Notes: generated from the sequence alone by a model not told the origin. A stretch of DNA of 64,000 bases from Candidatus Latescibacterota bacterium (GCA_965205975.1 OZ242195.1:448001-512000), one strand, 5' to 3'; shown: positions 24,435-33,596, counted from the stretch's first letter. A program made the numbers and translations.

Positions 24435-25565
24435 ATGTGGATCCGTATTATGTTGACCGTTTGTTCGGTGTTTGTGTTGACAGGTCCGGCATTGGCTGGC
24501 GACATGACCCACGTCCCGGACAGGGACTTCGATACGCTACGCGCCGCAGGAAACAGAAACCCCACAGGGATCTGGTCGGACGGGATGACCATGTGGGTGG
24601 CGGATAGGAGCGCTAAAATTTATGCCTACAACATGAGGTTCAGAGCACGTGACCGGGGCAGGGACTTCAATACGCTAGCCGCCGAAAACGAATCTCCTGC
24701 AGGGATCTGGTCAGACGGAACAACCATGTGGGTGGTGGACCTTGCTGACGGTAGGATTTATGCTTACAACATGAGATCTAAAGCCCGTGACAAGGACCAG
24801 GAATTCGATCTCGCCGTAGAACACGACGTCCCTGAAGGGATCTGGTCGGATGGGACAACCATGTGGGTGAAGGAAAGCTCTTACCAATTCGATAAAATTT
24901 ATGCCTACAACATGAGGTCTAAAGCTCGTGATCCGAACAAGGACTTCAATACGCTAAAAGACGCCGGAGAACAAAGCACTGACGGGATCTGGTCGGACGG
25001 GACGACCATGTTGGTAGCAGACGGATATCGGCATAAAATTTACGCCTACAACATGAGATCTAAAGCCCGTGACCGGGGCAAGGAATTCGATCTCGCCGCA
25101 GGAAACATCTCCCCTACGGGTATCTGGTCAGATGGAACGACTATATGGGTAGCGGACTACGGGGGCCACATTTATGCCTACGGCGGTCTGGGTGCCACCA
25201 GTGAGCAGGACATCCAGGACTTTTCAATGAAAATCAGCGGCTCGACGGGGACCCTGAAGATTTGCGTGCGAGACCACGAATGCGAAGATGGCGATAAGAT
25301 CCGCGTTGATGTAGATGGCAGGAGCATATTTTCCGGAGAGATTGACAACGACTGGGACTGCTACACGCTGGATGTGTGGGCAGGCGAGAGCTATGCGGTG
25401 GAATTAACAGCCCTCAACGGCACGGGATACAAGGGGGACTGTAGCTACCGAGACGAAAACACGGGTGAGATCCGCGTTACTGGAGAGAATACGGAAACGC
25501 AAGTATGGCGTCATAGGGGTGGTGCTGGATCGAAGGCCCGAATCATTGTGGAAACAGTCAGGTGA
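24435..25565 (+). CDS. Secreted protein with five GIWSDG..MWV..KIYAY repeats (putative beta-propeller) and a Cys-containing C-terminal domain
   Basis: Signal peptide (ALA); five ~47-aa repeats visible at protein and DNA level. Confidence 0.8.
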   Translation: MWIRIMLTVCSVFVLTGPALAGDMTHVPDRDFDTLRAAGNRNPTGIWSDGMTMWVADRSAKIYAYNMRFRARDRGRDFNTLAAENESPAGIWSDGTTMWVVDLADGRIYAYNMRSKARDKDQEFDLAVEHDVPEGIWSDGTTMWVKESSYQFDKIYAYNMRSKARDPNKDFNTLKDAGEQSTDGIWSDGTTMLVADGYRHKIYAYNMRSKARDRGKEFDLAAGNISPTGIWSDGTTIWVADYGGHIYAYGGLGATSEQDIQDFSMKISGSTGTLKICVRDHECEDGDKIRVDVDGRSIFSGEIDNDWDCYTLDVWAGESYAVELTALNGTGYKGDCSYRDENTGEIRVTGENTETQVWRHRGGAGSKARIIVETVR

Positions 25566-25621: not shown

Positions 25622-26395
25622 ATGTGGCGTAAATTTGTAGTACTGGCAGTTGTGATGAGTTGTTGGCCGGTGTATTCAGTAAATTCCCAACCGAGTTTTC
25701 CAATACCTGAGATGGTGGTGATTCCATCGGGTAGTTTTAAGATGGGTTGCGTGTCGGGTATAAACTGCAATGATGATGAGAAGCCTGTGCATGAAGTGAA
25801 GATAGACTCGTTTGCCCTGTCGAAATATGAGGTGACGTTTGAGGAGTATGATGCTTTCACTGATGCGACGGGGCGCGAGCGTGCAGGCGATGGAGGCTGG
25901 GGTCGAGGTCGTCGTCCTGTGATCAGTGTTTCGTGGTATGATGCGATGATGTACGCAGAGTGGCTATCGGAGCAGACAGGGGATCGTTATCGTTTGCCGA
26001 GTGAGGCGGAGTGGGAGTATGCAGCGCGCGCTGGCTCAACGACGGTGTATAGCTGGGGCAACGAGATTGGTCGCAACCGCGCCAATTGTGATGGATGCGG
26101 CAGTGTGTGGGGTGGTGAGAGGTCAGCACTGGTGGGATCGTTCAGTGCCAATAAATGGGGTCTTCACGATATGCACGGCAATGTGATTGAGTGGGTGCTA
26201 GATTGTTGGAATAAGTATTACGAGGGGGCACCGACAGATGGTTTTGCCTGGTTGTCTGGAGACTGCTCTAAGCGCGTGGTGCGTGGTGGTGCGTGGACCT
26301 TCGTTCCGAGTGTCTTGCGTTCGGCGGATCGCAGCTGGCGCACCACCGATTTCCGGAGCTATTACAACGGTTTTCGAGTTGTCCGGGATCTTTAA
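25622..26395 (+). CDS. FGE-sulfatase/SUMF1 (CLec-fold) domain protein 1, secreted; candidate DGR target
   Basis: FKMG, EKPVHEV, RLPSEAEWEYAARAG, GLHDMHGNV, RGG...GFRV motifs; lacks the catalytic Cys pair. Confidence 0.9.
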   Translation: MWRKFVVLAVVMSCWPVYSVNSQPSFPIPEMVVIPSGSFKMGCVSGINCNDDEKPVHEVKIDSFALSKYEVTFEEYDAFTDATGRERAGDGGWGRGRRPVISVSWYDAMMYAEWLSEQTGDRYRLPSEAEWEYAARAGSTTVYSWGNEIGRNRANCDGCGSVWGGERSALVGSFSANKWGLHDMHGNVIEWVLDCWNKYYEGAPTDGFAWLSGDCSKRVVRGGAWTFVPSVLRSADRSWRTTDFRSYYNGFRVVRDL

Positions 26396-26501
26396 CTCCT
26401 GATTCTTTACCTCTTTACCTCGGTGACGGCACCTGTGCCGCGGTTATGTCCTCATAGCTCGTAAAGATGTTGACCGCGGCCAACCCGTGGTACGGGTGGT
26501 T

Positions 26502-26651
26502 TTGGGGTTGTCGATTACTTATGCCATTGTTCGCAATCACGATGGGGAGATTACTGGGGAGAGTGAACAGGGCGTGGGGACGACGTTCAGAGTGATTTTG
26601 CCGGTGGTGGGCGCAAGCTATCCGCAGATGAACGCAGATGGACGCGGATGA
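26502..26651 (+). pseudogene. C-terminal remnant of a histidine kinase HATPase_c domain
   Basis: Manual translation LGLSITYAIVRNHDGEITGESEQGVGTTFRVILPVV..., preceded out of frame by GGT ACG GGT (GTG); no start codon. Confidence 0.8.
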
Positions 26652-26739
26652 AAGGCGAATCAGGATTTACAGAGTTTGCACGGGAACAGGGTAAATCTAA
26701 CGGGAAACCGATTGCGAACAAAATGAGCGTGTGTTTTAA

Positions 26740-29181
26740 TCATCTACACTTACGTAACAGCCCCTGAAGGTTTATCCTCGGATCGTTTATCATTTTCTTG
26801 GCAATCTCATAACCTAGTTCGCGGTATGCTTCAAACTGCTCTTCATCGAAAAACTGGTCGGCAGTGCTCTGGTCGGGAAAATCAGGATTTGCGCCTTTGT
26901 AGCCTTTGAGCCGTATGCCAAGGCCCTTAATCATTGTTGTTTTGAGCAGTATCAGCGTACTCTCAGTCTTTTTTTTGTCAGGGTAGATAATTTTGCCTTT
27001 GATATAGCCTCGTTCCGCAAACTTGATACCGACGGGATAAGCGTCGGTGTTCGGATCTCGATCAATGACCTTTTGGGGGTCTGGATCACGGGGAATGATG
27101 CGTTCCAGATAGTCGTCTTTGTCAAATTTGATTTTTGCCCCGAAGTCAGTGCCGATCCGGCGCACCAGAACTTGTAAGTCTGTAAAATTAAACTCGGGGT
27201 CAGCACTGCCGTCACAACAGATTATCACCTTCACTTTACGACGCACCAACTCATATACACCCAAGTTTTCGAAATGACCGCCGTCACTAATTTGAAGCAA
27301 CTTCTGGTGTGCTGCGTAGCCGCGTGGACTTAGTTCGTGGTAGGCGGCGCGAAAGTGATTTCCGACCTTTTGAGACCTGGATTTGTCAGGGTTGGGATGT
27401 GGGACCCAATAACCGAGGCGTACGTTCAGCAAGGACATCAGTAGGGACAACAAAGGTTTTCGTGTAGGGCCTGATCCTCCGGCACCTGTGTTTGGATTGG
27501 CGGAAGCCCCGGATATGGCTACTGCTGTCGCCAGAGTGAGGGGGTCTTTCTGCATATAACAGACGGTTTTTCTCCAACCCGTCGCTGTGCTACCACAATA
27601 CTTTGGCGAAAGAAGAAAGGCATCTCCACCCCTCACCCGCCATCTGGAATCGTCCGAATTAACCAGTATCACGTTGGTATTTATTAGATGATAAGGCGCG
27701 CGCGTGCGACACATATCACTCAGTTTCGCTTTGTTGGCCTTTATTGCGGCAGAGGGTTTTCCGTCCGTATTCGGGCAGGGCATGAATGCTTCCATGAGAC
27801 GGTCCCTATAGTAGCGGTGAATCGAGATGTAGTTGAGATTTACATACCAGCCTGTCACGAGCGAGATAACTTCGCCCACCAGGAGCACCCAATTGAACCA
27901 GGCATTATCAAAGTAAAACAAGGCCAGCTTATATGACACTAACGCCAGTCCATAGAGAAATAGGATGGACGCAAGCGATGCGAGAACACTGAGAGGAATC
28001 TTTCCCTTTCCGTTGTGACCTGAGCGGTAGAAAGACCACAACCCACCAACGATGCCGAGCGAGAGTAACGCGACACTGATTGCATTTGCGTTAGGATCCT
28101 TCAACCATTCTGCCACTGTCGGAAGTGATCCCACCACGAAGAGGCCCAGACCTATAAACAAAGGCCATGGGATCCACTTCTCAAATATCCGTCGGCAAAG
28201 GTATGGGTCTTTGAGAAGTTTGAGAAGTTTGAGGATGAGTTTTCGAGTGGATAGTGAATAACTTATACTCGCAAGCAGGAACACGATCCCCATAAGGCCC
28301 GAGAGACATAGCAGTAAACCAAGTTCACCCTCGTTGCATGCCCAGCATAATGCTTTGATTTTACTCCATAAGGCACTCCACCAATTACATTCTAACAAAT
28401 GGAAGACTACTTTGACGTCATTCCATAAATTATCCATACTGGCCCATGCCACTAACATGAATACGACCATAAAGCAGACATTCTTGATGATACTTCTTAC
28501 ATTCCTTATATCCCAACTAGCCCACGATACGAACATGATCACGGTCATAAGATAGACTGCCTTGTCACCCCATAAGTCTTCCCAATTAGCCTGCGCTACT
28601 AACATGAGCACGACCATAAGAGCGACCACCAGCGGTAGCCACACCAAAAGGTTGAGAAGGATGCCTCGGAGAATCACGGCGATTAGCGATGTTGTCGTGA
28701 TCCCGTTGCCAGGTATGAGGTATTTGCCGTGTAATCGCAGATGTTTGAGAATATTGAACTTGTTCTTGCGTAGTCGTTCTTTTCGCGGGCCCTCAACGCC
28801 GTATGGGAGATTAGCACTGGTGTTCCAGGAATCTCCATCTTTCTTTAGTTTCTTGGCTTTGTCGCTGAGGAGCCATGTCAAAGCACCTCCGATGTATCCG
28901 CCTCCCGAAACCGTCGAGAGATAATCCACATGTTTGAGGCAATCCTCTTTGGCGAGTCTTTGCAGAACTCCCAGTGAGAAGGTCGCCGACCGGATTCCTC
29001 CCCCAGAAAGTGCCAGACCAACGAGATTTTTTTTAAGTTTCTGTTTCTTGTTGGATTTGCAGTGGATAGATTTCCGTCTCTTGCATATGATTTTAAGTTC
29101 TTCATTCAAGATGTCCTTTGGAATCTTGAATGACTTACACTTGGGAGGCCATACATACGATTCATTTTGCTTGACTGCCAT
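26740..29181 (-). CDS. Patatin/cPLA2-like phospholipase with a multi-TM insertion
   Basis: GLALSGGGIRSA, YLSTVSGG (Ser) and SDGGHFEN (Asp) motifs; about 9-10 TM helices in between. Confidence 0.88.
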   Translation of the reverse strand: MAVKQNESYVWPPKCKSFKIPKDILNEELKIICKRRKSIHCKSNKKQKLKKNLVGLALSGGGIRSATFSLGVLQRLAKEDCLKHVDYLSTVSGGGYIGGALTWLLSDKAKKLKKDGDSWNTSANLPYGVEGPRKERLRKNKFNILKHLRLHGKYLIPGNGITTTSLIAVILRGILLNLLVWLPLVVALMVVLMLVAQANWEDLWGDKAVYLMTVIMFVSWASWDIRNVRSIIKNVCFMVVFMLVAWASMDNLWNDVKVVFHLLECNWWSALWSKIKALCWACNEGELGLLLCLSGLMGIVFLLASISYSLSTRKLILKLLKLLKDPYLCRRIFEKWIPWPLFIGLGLFVVGSLPTVAEWLKDPNANAISVALLSLGIVGGLWSFYRSGHNGKGKIPLSVLASLASILFLYGLALVSYKLALFYFDNAWFNWVLLVGEVISLVTGWYVNLNYISIHRYYRDRLMEAFMPCPNTDGKPSAAIKANKAKLSDMCRTRAPYHLINTNVILVNSDDSRWRVRGGDAFLLSPKYCGSTATGWRKTVCYMQKDPLTLATAVAISGASANPNTGAGGSGPTRKPLLSLLMSLLNVRLGYWVPHPNPDKSRSQKVGNHFRAAYHELSPRGYAAHQKLLQISDGGHFENLGVYELVRRKVKVIICCDGSADPEFNFTDLQVLVRRIGTDFGAKIKFDKDDYLERIIPRDPDPQKVIDRDPNTDAYPVGIKFAERGYIKGKIIYPDKKKTESTLILLKTTMIKGLGIRLKGYKGANPDFPDQSTADQFFDEEQFEAYRELGYEIAKKMINDPRINLQGLLRKCR

Positions 29182-29197
29182 TGGAACCTCCGATGCC

Positions 29198-29584
29198 TTA
29201 CTGTTCCTTACATTTTTGTCTTGAATTATGGGGTATTACGTTTTCTAAGTAGTGCTGTTCAGAGACGGGGTGCTCCATACCAAGATAGCGTGCTACTGTC
29301 GCATAGGGCGTCAATTTTCCTGCCCGGTGAATGTCGTCGGGCACATGTTGTCCGTTTGATTCCAATACGGTCAATAGCTGGTCGAGATCATGCACATACG
29401 GAAACTCAATATCGCATGCGATCATTATGCCCTTGATGGCTTTCTCCGCCGCCTGTTGGGCATCAAAACACAAGTCTTCGAGATAGGTACCGGGAATTCG
29501 GTTTTTTGCTCGAATTAGATTGCTACTGGCGCGGTTCAGCCATTCCCGGGGGTCGTAGGGTGGGAAGCGTTCAGGCTGCTTCAT
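29198..29584 (-). CDS. HEPN domain protein (toxin of a HEPN-MNT pair), probably C-terminally truncated
   Basis: WLNRASSNL, CFDAQQAAEKAIK and HDL motifs; the tail after HYLE (~29242) looks unrelated. Confidence 0.82.
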   Translation of the reverse strand: MKQPERFPPYDPREWLNRASSNLIRAKNRIPGTYLEDLCFDAQQAAEKAIKGIMIACDIEFPYVHDLDQLLTVLESNGQHVPDDIHRAGKLTPYATVARYLGMEHPVSEQHYLENVIPHNSRQKCKEQ

Positions 29585-29885
29585 ATATGACCCTTCCCTC
29601 TCGCAGTGCGGGCTTGATCACCAGTGCGTGACTATCCTTATAACGTTCCATCTGCGCTGGCGTGACCACGATTGCATCTACCGCCACGCCAATGCCGCGC
29701 AAATTCCCGTAGATGTCTCCCATAACAGTCCACGGATCGCTACCGTCCTTTACGACAAGCAGGTCAACGTCGCTATGGCGATTCACATCGCCCCTCGCGG
29801 CGGACCCGAAGAGAATGATCTTCTCTGGATGAGCGACCTCTACAATGCGCCGGATGATGTCGTTCAGGGTTGATTGATCCAGCAT
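29571..29885 (-). CDS. Minimal nucleotidyltransferase (MNT antitoxin)
   Basis: LFGSAARG...SDVDLLVV motif; overlaps the HEPN start. Confidence 0.92.
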   Translation of the reverse strand: MLDQSTLNDIIRRIVEVAHPEKIILFGSAARGDVNRHSDVDLLVVKDGSDPWTVMGDIYGNLRGIGVAVDAIVVTPAQMERYKDSHALVIKPALREGRVIYEAA

Positions 29886-29919
29886 CGTATTATCTTTTGT
29901 ATGCTCACGTCATGTGTAA

Positions 29920-30000
29920 CTATGTAACTATAGGATAGTATTCAGCACGTAGCCGGACAACGACCTGCTCCGATATATTTTTGTCGGCAAGTATTCTCAT
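29920..30000 (-). pseudogene. N-terminal stub of a DUF5615/VapC45-like PIN toxin
   Basis: ATG abuts the DUF433 stop; translates as MRILADKNISEQVVVRLRAE then YYPIVT*. Confidence 0.75.
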
Positions 30001-30610
30001 CTACCGTTTGCCATCCATAATCGCGTCAATATCCGCCCAGGTCACATTGGACAGCTTTGCACCAGTGGCGGCGTACTCCCGACAAGCTCGGATATCTTTC
30101 AGGGTAATGTGCGAATACCTGCGGATGATATCGGCTTCGCTGCGTCCTCCGTCCAGCAATTCCATGATCAGTTCCACTGAAATCCGAGTGCCTTTTATTG
30201 TTGGTTTTCCGACCAGAATCAACGGGTCAGTGACGATGCGATCTTGCCAGATTGGATTCTTTTCTGTTTTGGCCATAGCCTATCTCCTTTTTTGTCCCTG
30301 GATCTCCTCAATCCCATTACCCGAAGTATTTAAAAAAGCTCCAGGTGACAAAGACAGTATATTCAGTTCTGCATGTTTTGTCAACGCGCTGTTCTCATCA
30401 ACTAAGGCTTATAGAACTCTGTACTTTCTGGATAAAAAAGGGGACCGGGATCGGGAAGCGATATGGATTTTGCTGGTGCGGGTTGGGGACTCACTGTATA
30501 ATGACGGTCAAAGTACACGACAAAAAACGGGTTCGATATTTATCATTTGCGCGTGAATTCAGGTCGCATCCTGGACCACCTCCGCAAACACAGTTCTGAA
30601 GCCTACGCCA
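29990..30610. repeat. Direct repeat, copy 1 (blocks 29990-30096 and 30317-30610 recur at 33192-33596)
   Basis: Near-identical sequence by eye, e.g. TTACCCGAAGTATTTAAAAAAGCTCCAGG...GAAGCCTACGCCA. Confidence 0.95.
30001..30276 (-). CDS. DUF433 family (VapB45-like antitoxin)
   Basis: IVTDPLILVGKPTIKGTRISVELI...DIRACREYA. Confidence 0.92.
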   Translation of the reverse strand: MAKTEKNPIWQDRIVTDPLILVGKPTIKGTRISVELIMELLDGGRSEADIIRRYSHITLKDIRACREYAATGAKLSNVTWADIDAIMDGKR

Positions 30611-30646
30611 GGATCATGGAAAAAGAATAAAGAAAGGAAAGACAAG

Positions 30647-31471
30647 ATGTATCGTCATTGTATTTGTACAGGTGTATTCATTCTTCTGAGCCTTCCCCTT
30701 TGGTCACAACAGGACACCGGGAACAGTGCGCCTTCACCTGGCGAGACTTTTCAAGATTGTAATGAATGTCCAAAGATGGTTGTCGTGCCATCGGGAAGGT
30801 TCACGATGGGATCATCCAGGGGAGAGGCGGGTCATGAAGATGATGAAGAACCGCTACGCAGGGTGCGTATAGATTACCGGTTTGCCGTAGGCGTCTATGA
30901 GGTGACATTTGCCGAGTGGTATGCATGTATGGATGCAGGTGGTTGTGGGAGCTACGTTCCGGATGATATGCGCTGGGGCCGCGGAAATCGTCCAGTGATC
31001 AATGTGAGTTGGGACGATGCCCAGTCTTATGTGAGTTGGTTGTCAGCCCGGACGGGTAAAACGTATCGTTTATTGAGTGAATCGGAATGGGAGTATGTGG
31101 CGCGCGCAGGCACAGAGACAGCATATAGCTGGGGTGACAGCATCGGTGTCAACCGTGCCAATTGCGAGGGTTGCGGCAGTCAGTGGGATGATAAGATGAC
31201 AGCGCCAGTGGGATCATTCGCAGCCAATGTCTGGGGCGTGTACGATATGCACGGCAATGTGTGGGAGTGGGTGCAAGACTGCTATAATGACAGCTATGAA
31301 GGCGCACCTACAGATGGAAGTGCTTGGACGTCTGAGGACTGCTCCGAGCGCGTGTTGCGTGGTGGTTCGGCGAAAAGCGTCCCGAGTTACCTGCGTTCGG
31401 CGCGTCGTCTCAGTCATACCACCGGAAGCCGGTACCGTGACCTCGGTTTTCGAGTTGCCCGGTCTTTTTAG
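30647..31471 (+). CDS. FGE-sulfatase/SUMF1 (CLec-fold) domain protein 2, secreted; candidate DGR target
   Basis: FQDCNECPKMVVVP, RLLSESEWEYVARAG, DMHGNVWEW, RVLRGG...GFRVAR motifs. Confidence 0.9.
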   Translation: MYRHCICTGVFILLSLPLWSQQDTGNSAPSPGETFQDCNECPKMVVVPSGRFTMGSSRGEAGHEDDEEPLRRVRIDYRFAVGVYEVTFAEWYACMDAGGCGSYVPDDMRWGRGNRPVINVSWDDAQSYVSWLSARTGKTYRLLSESEWEYVARAGTETAYSWGDSIGVNRANCEGCGSQWDDKMTAPVGSFAANVWGVYDMHGNVWEWVQDCYNDSYEGAPTDGSAWTSEDCSERVLRGGSAKSVPSYLRSARRLSHTTGSRYRDLGFRVARSF

Positions 31472-31533
31472 CTGGGGGAAAGAAGTAGATGCATCTGATT
31501 GGGAAGGTGAGGCTTTTCATCAGTTTGTACGCC

Positions 31534-33090
31534 TCATGCAAGCGTTGTCTCAAACCCTATCAGATTGCGGGTCTCGCGGCTGAATTCTACCCCGATCATA
31601 AAAATCGGCTCGCCCAGATCGCGGTATTTGTCCGCATATCCCTTTGCCTGCAATTGCGCCATTGCAGACCCTTCCGGTGCCAATTCCACCACTTTGAACT
31701 CGAACAGATACACATTGTTGTTGAAACGAACCGCCATGTCCAGACGCCCATCGCTGCCACTGTCTTCCACAACGATGTCGAATCCCACCGATGCGAAGTA
31801 GGAGTAGAACACGCTGGCGTAGTAGCCTTCGTAGTTCGCTATATCATTGTTTGTGTGCCACTGATAGGGAATGCTGGCGAAGAATGCCTTGAACAGGCTT
31901 TCCAGGCCAGCGAAGTCATTGATCAGCAACAGGTCATACAGACGGGCGCGATGCTCCGTGCGCTGTGAGGGATCGCCAGTCAGGTGATTTAGCAGGCTCC
32001 TGTTCAAGCTCTGACGCACTTCCCGATTCGGATAGGATAGCCGATAATACATCTCGCCACCGCGCGGTTCGGTTTGGATAATCGTGAGATAGCCGGTCTG
32101 GAACAGCAGGGCTTCGGTGGCGATGTGGTCAACATCAAAAGCCGACAGCAAATCATCACTGCCCAGCATGTTGTCCAGCGCCAGCGCACCGACCCCGCGC
32201 GATAGCAGCGTCTCGATCAGAAATGTCGGTGTGCCGGTCTCGAACCAGTAGGCTTCGAAGCTCTGCCTTCTGAACAGCAAGAGGATGTCGAAGGGGTTAT
32301 AGACCTTCTCCTGTCCCCGCCAACTATAGCCATTGTACCAGTCGCGGATCTCATCCCGATCCAGACCCGGCAGTTCTGGCGCGAATACCATGTCGAGGTC
32401 CTTCTCGGTGTAGCCGCAAATAGCCGAGTAGCGCGTGTCCAGCGTGATGTTGGTCAAGTTGTTGAGACCAGAAAAGATGCTCGCCTTGGTGAATTGGCTG
32501 ACGCCCGTGAGGAAAGTGAAGTGAATGTGTGCATCGCAGTCTTTAGTGGTGGCGTACAGACTGTGCAGAAAATCGCGGTTGGCACGGGCGACCTCTGGCA
32601 CCTCAAGCGCGTCCAGAATCGGCTTATCGTATTCATCAACAAGCACGACAACACGCTGCTCAGCCTGCCGATGCAATACCCGGATCAGGTCGCCAAAGCA
32701 CTCTGAGGCCGTATCGTAACGCGGCACAATCCCGGCTTCTTCCGCTATCGTGTGGAGTTGCGTCATTACATTCGCATGCAGATAGTCCGCTTCTTTGAAA
32801 TTGCCTCTGCCAAAGCTCAAGCGCACAACGGGATAGCGAACGCGCCAGTCCCAATACTCATGGATATGAAGCCCCTCGAACAGCGGCTCATTGCCCTCAA
32901 AAAGTTCCTTCAGCGTATCCAGAAACAGGCTTTTGCCAAACCGACGTGGACGCGATAAAAAGTAGTGCGTGCCTTCGTCTATCAGTCGCCGCATGTGGAC
33001 CGTTTTATCGACATAGTAGCAGTTTTCCTCCCGAATTTTGCGGAAGGTCTGAATGCCGATAGGCAACTTGCGTCTGTCTGATATGCCCAT
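31534..33090 (-). CDS. AAA-ATPase-like + PD-(D/E)XK nuclease (PDDEXK_9 type)
   Basis: KLPIGIQTF, SRPRRFGKS, VDEYDKP, WYNGY, GRLDM..FEFK..QL..KGY motifs. Confidence 0.92.
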   Translation of the reverse strand: MGISDRRKLPIGIQTFRKIREENCYYVDKTVHMRRLIDEGTHYFLSRPRRFGKSLFLDTLKELFEGNEPLFEGLHIHEYWDWRVRYPVVRLSFGRGNFKEADYLHANVMTQLHTIAEEAGIVPRYDTASECFGDLIRVLHRQAEQRVVVLVDEYDKPILDALEVPEVARANRDFLHSLYATTKDCDAHIHFTFLTGVSQFTKASIFSGLNNLTNITLDTRYSAICGYTEKDLDMVFAPELPGLDRDEIRDWYNGYSWRGQEKVYNPFDILLLFRRQSFEAYWFETGTPTFLIETLLSRGVGALALDNMLGSDDLLSAFDVDHIATEALLFQTGYLTIIQTEPRGGEMYYRLSYPNREVRQSLNRSLLNHLTGDPSQRTEHRARLYDLLLINDFAGLESLFKAFFASIPYQWHTNNDIANYEGYYASVFYSYFASVGFDIVVEDSGSDGRLDMAVRFNNNVYLFEFKVVELAPEGSAMAQLQAKGYADKYRDLGEPIFMIGVEFSRETRNLIGFETTLA

Positions 33091-33140
33091 CTCTCATCTC
33101 CAGATTGTGATGTCAGCACGGTCACCCTGCGCGATACAGT

Positions 33141-33169
33141 ATTATACCGCTTTCGCTATCTATTTGGAA
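33141..33169 (-). promoter_or_regulatory. Putative sigma70 promoter of the AAA/PD-(D/E)XK gene
   Basis: Minus strand TTCCAA-17 nt-TATAAT, about 50 nt upstream of the ATG. Confidence 0.45.
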
Positions 33170-33191
33170 GTCAAATATGTTTTCATCAGCC

Positions 33192-33596
33192 AGTATTCTC
33201 ATCTATCGTTTGCCATCCATAATCGCGTCAATATCCTCCCAGGTCACATTGGACAGCTTTGCACCAGTGGCGGCATACTCCCGACAAGCTCGGATATCCT
33301 CTTACCCGAAGTATTTAAAAAAGCTCCAGGTGACAAAGACAGTATATTTAGTTCTGCATGTTTTGTCAACGCGCTGTTCTCATCAACTAAGGCTTATAGA
33401 ACTCTGTACTTTCTGGATAAAAAAGGGGACCGGGATCGGGAAGCGATATGGATTTTGCTGGTGCAGGTTGGGGACACACTGTATAATGACGGTCAAAGTA
33501 CACGACAAAAAAACGGGTTCGATATTTATCATTTGCGCGTGAATTCAGGTCGCATCCTGGACCACATCCGCAAACACAGTCCTGAAGCCTACGCCA
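33192..33596. repeat. Direct repeat, copy 2, with a ~220 bp internal deletion (keeps DUF433 3' end and PIN stub MRILADENI)
   Basis: Matches 29990-30096 joined through CTC to 30317-30610. Confidence 0.95.

Follow-up and report, generated by a model that had tools for sequence, protein, structure and literature searches.

The 64,000-nucleotide stretch of DNA analyzed here (the window, G000:C1:448001-512000) comes from a Candidatus Latescibacterota genome, G000, and carries two genes, A and B, that very probably are former targets of a chromosomal diversity-generating retroelement (DGR). A DGR reverse-transcribes a template RNA, putting random bases opposite its adenines, and the resulting cDNA is used to overwrite a target gene. 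By this reading the machinery was lost, A and B have gathered only ordinary substitutions since, and both would now encode exported ligand-binding proteins of fixed specificity.

Gene A (25622..26395, plus strand) is an open reading frame for a 257-aa FGE-sulfatase/CLec-fold protein (PF03781, E 1.5e-60), and gene B (30647..31471, plus strand) is one for a 274-aa protein of the same fold (PF03781, E 5e-57); each has an N-terminal segment that looks signal-like by eye. Alignment to templates from related genomes defines a variable region of 114 nt in A (26273..26386, plus strand) and its counterpart in B (31349..31462, plus strand), both of which stop three codons short of the stop codon. G000 is a single contig of 5.56 Mb with a completeness rating of 98.3%; the labels G006 to G048 denote related genomes, and L labels denote fetched loci.

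Shared 3' ends and templates in relatives

The last 135 nt of A and B (26261-26395 and 31337-31471) align without gaps, and 20 of the 24 codons encoding the same residue in this stretch are identical, reproducing what a first-pass annotation of the window had reported when it proposed a DGR origin for the two genes. All nine codon pairs listed there change solely at positions 1-2 and have the same third-base pyrimidine, and the pairs acc/aaa and tgg/gcg do not fit a DGR pattern, again as described. The contrast drawn with upstream sequence is real, but the stretch chosen for it (residues 100-120, 2/10 codons identical) is extreme and overstates the effect. Over the entire upstream alignment 56/108 same-residue codons are identical, giving silent identities of 83% (20/24) inside and 52% outside the shared end (Fisher p = 0.0036).

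A dispersed target family had also been predicted, and nine of the 15 PF03781 matches in G000 are indeed close to A and B (E < 1e-40): A and B themselves, C (2689 kb), D (2693 kb), E (2697 kb), F (1181 kb), G (1185 kb, a kinase fusion outside the window), H (1571 kb) and I (2848 kb). Most pairs drawn from A, B, C, E, G and I have a high silent identity within the region, with the maximum in the A/G pair, where 25/26 same-residue codons are identical inside the region compared to 41/79 outside (p = 1.4e-5). Over all 36 paralog pairs the rise is slight (461/736 inside versus 2154/3819 outside), since F and H lack the common scaffold.

A search for reverse transcriptase (RT) genes across 61 related genomes was compared with a search for target genes, and the RT matches of relatives fall inside their target-gene clusters. 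The template, RT and avd that the first-pass annotation had led us to look for are present as an intact cassette in G017, a genome of the same genus, while G000 itself has no RT and no intact template. The G017 cassette is an uninterrupted row of target, avd, RT, template and spacer (L066:10269-12225), whose Avd passes NF033474 and PF22296 and whose RT passes RVT_1; the cassette of G048, from the same order, is also intact. Seven neighboring G017 targets differ from their own template at 17-19 of 33 adenines and at 1-2 of 81 other bases. An eighth target, 3.5 Mb from the RT, has 14 adenine changes and one other difference, indicating that remote targeting, or the recent move of a target, occurs in the genus. 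This remote target (L207, G017:C1:668800-668912) has an apparent short duplication right before its variable region.

From 56 loci we recovered 37 templates, 35 of them distinct, with one common layout of AAY codons. The related AAY-rich template that had been predicted is thus present in relatives, and the predicted pattern is matched codon for codon by the template of G017, which is the closest of the 37 to both genes. Compared to it, the variable region of A differs at 20/33 adenines and 14/81 other bases, and that of B at 19/33 adenines and 16/81 other bases, so the further expectation that mismatches would be confined to template adenines did not hold.

The third base of changed codons gives a sharper test. 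At least 80% of templates have AAY at a set of ten codons, and the changed codons of this set keep a third-base pyrimidine in 10/10 cases in A and 9/9 in B (19/19 in total, p = 8.6e-6 against a genome background of 54%). In 14 of these 19 codons the pyrimidine is a cytosine. As controls, the pyrimidine is kept in 274/282 cases in 35 targets that lie beside templates, and in 15/27 cases in three distant paralogs with the same loop length. Together with the template match in relatives, the kept third-base pyrimidines bear out the DGR origin proposed for A and B.

Codon 13 is AGT in A, B and F and has G in the third place in all 35 templates. The 3' ends of A and B are of the target type, CGG, in contrast to the CGC or similar triplet of templates. 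Comparison with templates and a G017 target places a target-type 3' end, resembling an initiation of mutagenic homology (IMH) site, plus a downstream pyrimidine tract at 26369..26421 (plus strand) in A. The tract (26404-26421) is identical at 18/18 positions to one behind a G017 target, and B has no tract. Behind A there is only a 5-bp stem (26427-26440); the GC hairpin seen in G048 and in other phyla is absent there, as it is behind the fresh targets of G017.

We also compared A and B with orthologs, using 69 regions collected by pattern from G000 and from fetched loci of the genus (several loci contributed no row), 64 of which entered a scaffold tree that excluded the variable region. A, B and G fall in separate clades of this tree. 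A differs from its G015 sister at 16/23 adenine-class sites and 6/70 others (skipping an insertion in G015), and B differs from its G020 sister at 23/34 adenine-class sites and 16/80 others, with scaffold divergences of 11-13% for the two pairs. In the clade of paralog H, in contrast, which spans 15 genomes with a median scaffold difference of 9%, medians of 2/34 adenine-class and 7/80 other sites differ. Since the H clade is nearly unvaried at adenine sites, being in a loop does not in itself make a site hypervariable at such distances, and in each pair one or both lineages were rewritten after the split. The A-like genes of G015 (L068:13474-13650) and G008 (L018) have in-frame insertions of 16 and 24 codons, respectively, within the variable region.

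Gene conversion or 3'-end swapping between paralogs with variable loops, with no retrohoming at A and B, could likewise produce similar 3' ends. Some variable codons are common to A and G, and orphan 3' target tails at 1177.4 and 2233.9 kb (1177410-1177455 and 2233822-2233888, each with no gene in front and an unrelated open reading frame after it) imply that such ends get shuffled. Yet this process would copy silent sites and variable ones equally, and the differences between A and B instead fall at 23/34 adenine-class sites and only 10/80 others. It also leaves the kept third-base pyrimidines, the match to a real template and the avd and template remnants described below unexplained. The third-base and site-class tests have already largely refuted this explanation, and we consider it very unlikely.

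Probable loss of the cassette and the present state of A and B

In line with the first-pass annotation, the window contains neither an RT nor a template, and we found no RT anywhere in the genome. Searches with PF00078, the G017 RT protein (E up to 10), a hidden Markov model built on 23 RTs of various types (best E 1.8) and tblastn gave no RT match in G000. There was no PF22296 match to Avd, of which residues 7-43 survive as a stub located behind paralog D, and neither pattern search nor blastn detected an AAC-rich template.

The remains of a cassette were apparent 0.7 Mb from A and B. Paralog F (1180390-1181564; L203:6391-7565, minus strand) is a target-type gene that ends in a template-type end followed by a spacer of ~130 nt, both drifted, with 73% identity over 215 nt to G048 and 78% identity of the spacer to G017. 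Its locus at 1180-1191 kb includes trypsin-FHA, FHA, MotA-like and kinase-FGE (G) genes in the order found around the broken G006 cassette, and the sequence behind F matches that after the RT stub in G015. The F locus is apparently a collapsed cassette. An ancestral avd-RT-template cassette like those of G017 and G048 would have overwritten the 3' 114 nt of many FGE/CLec paralogs, making silent sites of distant paralogs alike while randomizing codon positions 1-2 in the binding loops. A crossover between the variable region of F and the homologous template may then have deleted avd and RT; the scar is observed, and a template-plus-spacer end of F is what such recombination would be expected to leave. 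The stub behind D would be what is left of avd, and after cassette loss A and B would have gathered ordinary substitutions only.

Other genomes of the genus lost the cassette through different deletions. G006 retains RT residues 48-162 and half a template, G009 retains RT residues 1-99, G015 has RT residues 212-333 with the template cut out, and G035 has a template behind an avd-RT fusion scar. In G006 and G015, A-like and B-like genes stand directly before avd stubs or near the RT stub. The targets of G035 share 16 differences from the current G035 template, showing that more than one template version acted in these lineages.

Several observations count against reading A and B as former targets of a lost DGR. 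A cognate template is absent among the 37, the best of them leaving 14 and 16 non-adenine differences; the G017 template itself differs at 11/80 non-adenine sites from a genus consensus, built from 27 regions of other genomes with G000 excluded, which explains much of this mismatch. The template-like end of F was rejected as the direct template of A and B, with silent matches at only 10/20 and 12/21 sites, and it seems either not to be their direct template or to have drifted far. We also rejected a Fisher test of adenines versus other bases as proof, since the frozen paralog H gives p = 1e-4 as well and unrelated paralogs lean likewise; this ratio proves little alone because templates place adenines in loops that vary anyway. 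Against the genus consensus, A, B and G have 6, 8 and 6 non-adenine differences out of 80, counts that serve as a rough clock only given that the consensus is not a real template. The read evidence consists of contigs of one study covering at most three samples, one of them probably the source. Finally, A and G have several variable codons in common in the 3' half of the region, which points to some recombination between targets too.

The first-pass annotation had A and B diversified in trans, and as a description of the present day this finds no support, G000 having neither an RT nor an intact template; its accompanying suspicion that the targets are old or inactive was borne out. For targets that lie next to their own template the median is two non-adenine differences, and 32/35 have four or fewer; one of the two is a constant difference between targets and templates, located at the 3' end. 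Contigs with zero differences span the A region in 4/4 runs at a depth similar to that of the single-copy patatin gene, with the proviso that contigs drop rare variants; B is in no listed contig. Among the data sets listed as holding the sequence there is no RNA. Two read joints that resembled variants probably represent paralogs rather than alleles: the one linking 26296 to 26367 fits the flanks of paralog D, and the one linking 33594 to 30644 carries upstream letters of paralog E. The variable regions of A and B are probably frozen.

Alternatively, A and B could still be diversified in trans by a cassette missing from the assembly because it resides in a subset of the population, on a plasmid or in an island. 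The remote G017 target, with its 14 adenine changes and one other difference at 3.5 Mb from the RT, and the pyrimidine tract retained downstream of A would fit such a cassette, and DGR activity can be hidden in single-sample data, according to one report (PMC8144416). On the other hand, a single contig with 98.3% completeness has no RT, A and B exceed active targets in non-adenine differences, B has no tract, and the A region is unvaried in all four runs. RTs of this clade were found at zero loci in viral contigs, and no match to the G017 RT at 60% identity or above was found among the plasmid (best 5000) and phage records counted, the nearest annotated plasmid RTs being cyanobacterial and ~50% identical. 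Continued diversification therefore appears improbable, and loss of the machinery followed by ordinary substitution is the reading we retain.

Distribution of the cassette, the paralog family and the surroundings of A and B

Relatives of the G017 RT, mostly 67-86% identical, were found at 39 loci in Binatia, Dehalococcoidia, Alpha- and Gammaproteobacteria, Nitrospirota and Acidobacteriota, and metagenomes added 16 loci. The distribution of this RT clade over six phyla, with identities mostly of 70-86%, points to inter-phylum transfer at some time. A quick tree search was run on 31 RTs chosen from 55 loci, leaving out most duplicates, distant matches and short fragments. The five Latescibacterota rows, three of which are fragments, form one clade (SH-aLRT 95), suggesting one entry into the lineage followed by losses; repeated import from other phyla is not supported. 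Three near-identical cassettes occur in one alphaproteobacterial genome (L102-L104) and two in one gammaproteobacterial genome (L115-L116). A sponge habitat is only a guess, made from the lineages of the RT relatives together with the titles and opening lines of abstracts of papers; small-share runs labeled sponge metagenome do not enter into it.

The targets closest to cassettes are fused to kinases and have trypsin-FHA, FHA and MotA-like genes around them, and a phosphatase-like gene, read from translations, lies beside the G048, G006 and G035 cassettes. This gene neighborhood suggests a sensing and phosphorylation module. Across the genus, 18/21 genomes have close target-family genes, while a whole RT of this clade was found in 1/21 and fragments in three, some of the genomes being fragmented.

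The variable region of paralog C (2689440-2690255) is two codons short, a feature common to four genomes (with L160, L169 and L170) whose genes have similar 3' halves and different 5' halves. The once-variable region of paralog H (1570611-1571480) is almost unchanged across at least 15 genomes of the genus (L023-L034, L188, L191), where H is often the sole family member found, making it a candidate domesticated DGR product. At template AAY codons H keeps the pyrimidine in 9/10 cases (p = 0.02), so that its ever having been a DGR target is weakly supported.

Within the window, A adjoins an open reading frame for a repeat protein with a signal-like N-terminus (24435..25565, plus strand). The protein has several WSDG-type units and only a weak, unconvincing Pfam match, and its gene neighbors A-like genes in both G000 and G015, with 81% DNA identity over 1168 nt to a G015 island gene. 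Between A and B (26740..30276, minus strand), Pfam matches identify genes unrelated to DGRs: a patatin-like membrane protein, a HEPN and nucleotidyltransferase pair, and DUF433. Sequence comparison shows that a 300-bp segment before B (30311..30610, plus strand) has a 97% copy at 33296-33596 and a similar one upstream of paralog E. Behind B lies an AAA-ATPase-like/PD-(D/E)XK gene (31534..33090, minus strand; Pfam and genome comparison) that has several genomic copies, including ones beside paralog I and an orphan target tail. B and this multi-copy gene are flanked by partial duplications of the DUF433 gene and the 300-bp segment (29943-30610, 31487-33186, 33171-33596), and from this arrangement the surroundings of B look like a shuffled island.

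Likely function, known systems and implications

A matches TvpA (2y3c) in both sequence (E 1.2e-12) and fold (E 9.8e-11, TM 0.71). The structure model of A has a mean pLDDT of 67 and is poor over the variable region, with values below 50 at residues 191-222. Its best match among solved structures is PvdO (E 2.6e-47, TM 0.83), which would favor a different explanation in which A and B are FGE- or PvdO-type enzymes and the codon pattern arose by chance. However, A and B score only 186.5 and 228.1 with the NCBIfam PvdO model, far under its cut-off of 500. The catalytic cysteine pair of FGE, which we take to be placed after RGG (structure entries for C336S and C341S agree), is present in the best-scoring FGE paralog of the genome (3923.7 kb), likely its true FGE, while A and B have no cysteines there and carry the variable loop in place. 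On these grounds we hold the enzyme assignment to be extremely improbable. By analogy with TvpA, A and B are most likely exported binding proteins of fixed specificity with DGR-made loops; the fold, together with N-termini that look hydrophobic by eye, is the ground for calling them secreted binders.

Leftover DGR targets have been published before, and A and B are a further case that is unusually traceable through relatives. Treponema denticola isolates without RT or template have up to six target genes, interpreted as leftovers (Nimkulrat et al. 2016, PMC4891356). As with the T. denticola DGR and TvpA (PMC4891356, PDB 2Y3C), the targets in G000 and its relatives have the FGE/CLec fold and C-terminal variable regions, several occur per genome and some are remote, RT-less targets differ from the templates of others mostly at adenines, and gains and losses occur within a lineage. 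Unlike that system, the comparison here is across species of a genus rather than isolates, and physical scars can be seen in the form of an avd stub and of a target that continues into template and spacer. The cassette-proximal targets are kinase fusions with trypsin-FHA, FHA and MotA-like neighbors, and at least 15 genomes have a single variant in fixed form. A and B work like a TvpA-type target set in a genome with no functional DGR.

A survey defined category 'b' CLec1/FGE-sulfatase targets and remote targets and considered over half of candidate DGRs broken (Wu et al. 2018, PMC5758913). A and B resemble this category in having a C-terminal CLec1 variable region inside an FGE-sulfatase domain and in belonging to a non-phage system with multiple and remote targets; unlike the elements retained there, which exclude broken ones, G000 has no RT and would go uncounted. 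Thiohalocapsa PB-PSB1, whose DGRs belong to a clade 5 found in multicellular bacteria, is described as having degenerate loci (Dore et al. 2024, PMC10907252). The system examined here resembles clade 5 in its CLec/FGE targets, its fusions to kinases, its trypsin-like neighbors and its machinery-less loci. In PB-PSB1 one complete locus per class can serve the degenerate ones, whereas in G000 none is left. Incomplete cassettes also occur in 66/91 genomes of crAss-like phages (Morozova et al. 2020, PMC7290462), where, as here, most group members have broken cassettes and a minority intact ones; those DGRs differ in having phage tail targets, one per genome, and no avd.

RT-anchored mining is reported to miss remote targets, and selection can mask activity (Roux et al., PMC8144416). 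A modeling preprint treats RT loss as a possible fragility of DGRs (10.64898/2026.02.18.706561), and lineage loss of DGRs is mentioned elsewhere (PMC8867640). None of the literature matches listed deals with DGRs of Latescibacterota or of sponges, and this RT clade may figure in the DGR tables of PMC8144416 and PMC10907252. With the phenomenon itself published, A and B make a good case for the specialist rather than a surprise. They illustrate that target genes by themselves can reveal a DGR footprint, which relatives then confirm, and that RT-anchored surveys overlook whole repertoires, as in this genus, where 18/21 genomes have the target genes and 1/21 a whole RT of this clade.

Targets in this genus range from active to long-frozen and form a natural series in which to ask when a DGR is retained or lost, clade H serving as an internal control. 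The stages stand side by side: fresh targets in G017, half-deleted machinery in G006, G009, G015 and G035, machinery gone and 6-8 substitutions in A, B and G, and H conserved in at least 15 genomes. One tentative interpretation, which we regard as possible but doubtful, is that the DGR of this genus acts as a temporary library builder, diversifying dispersed receptor genes until loss of a cis element or of the cassette locks useful variants, some of which are then conserved. If loss is in fact favored because it fixes good binders, and is not simply decay, hypermutation would have a route, open to testing, by which it ends in a fixed gene function, one that is invisible to RT-anchored surveys.

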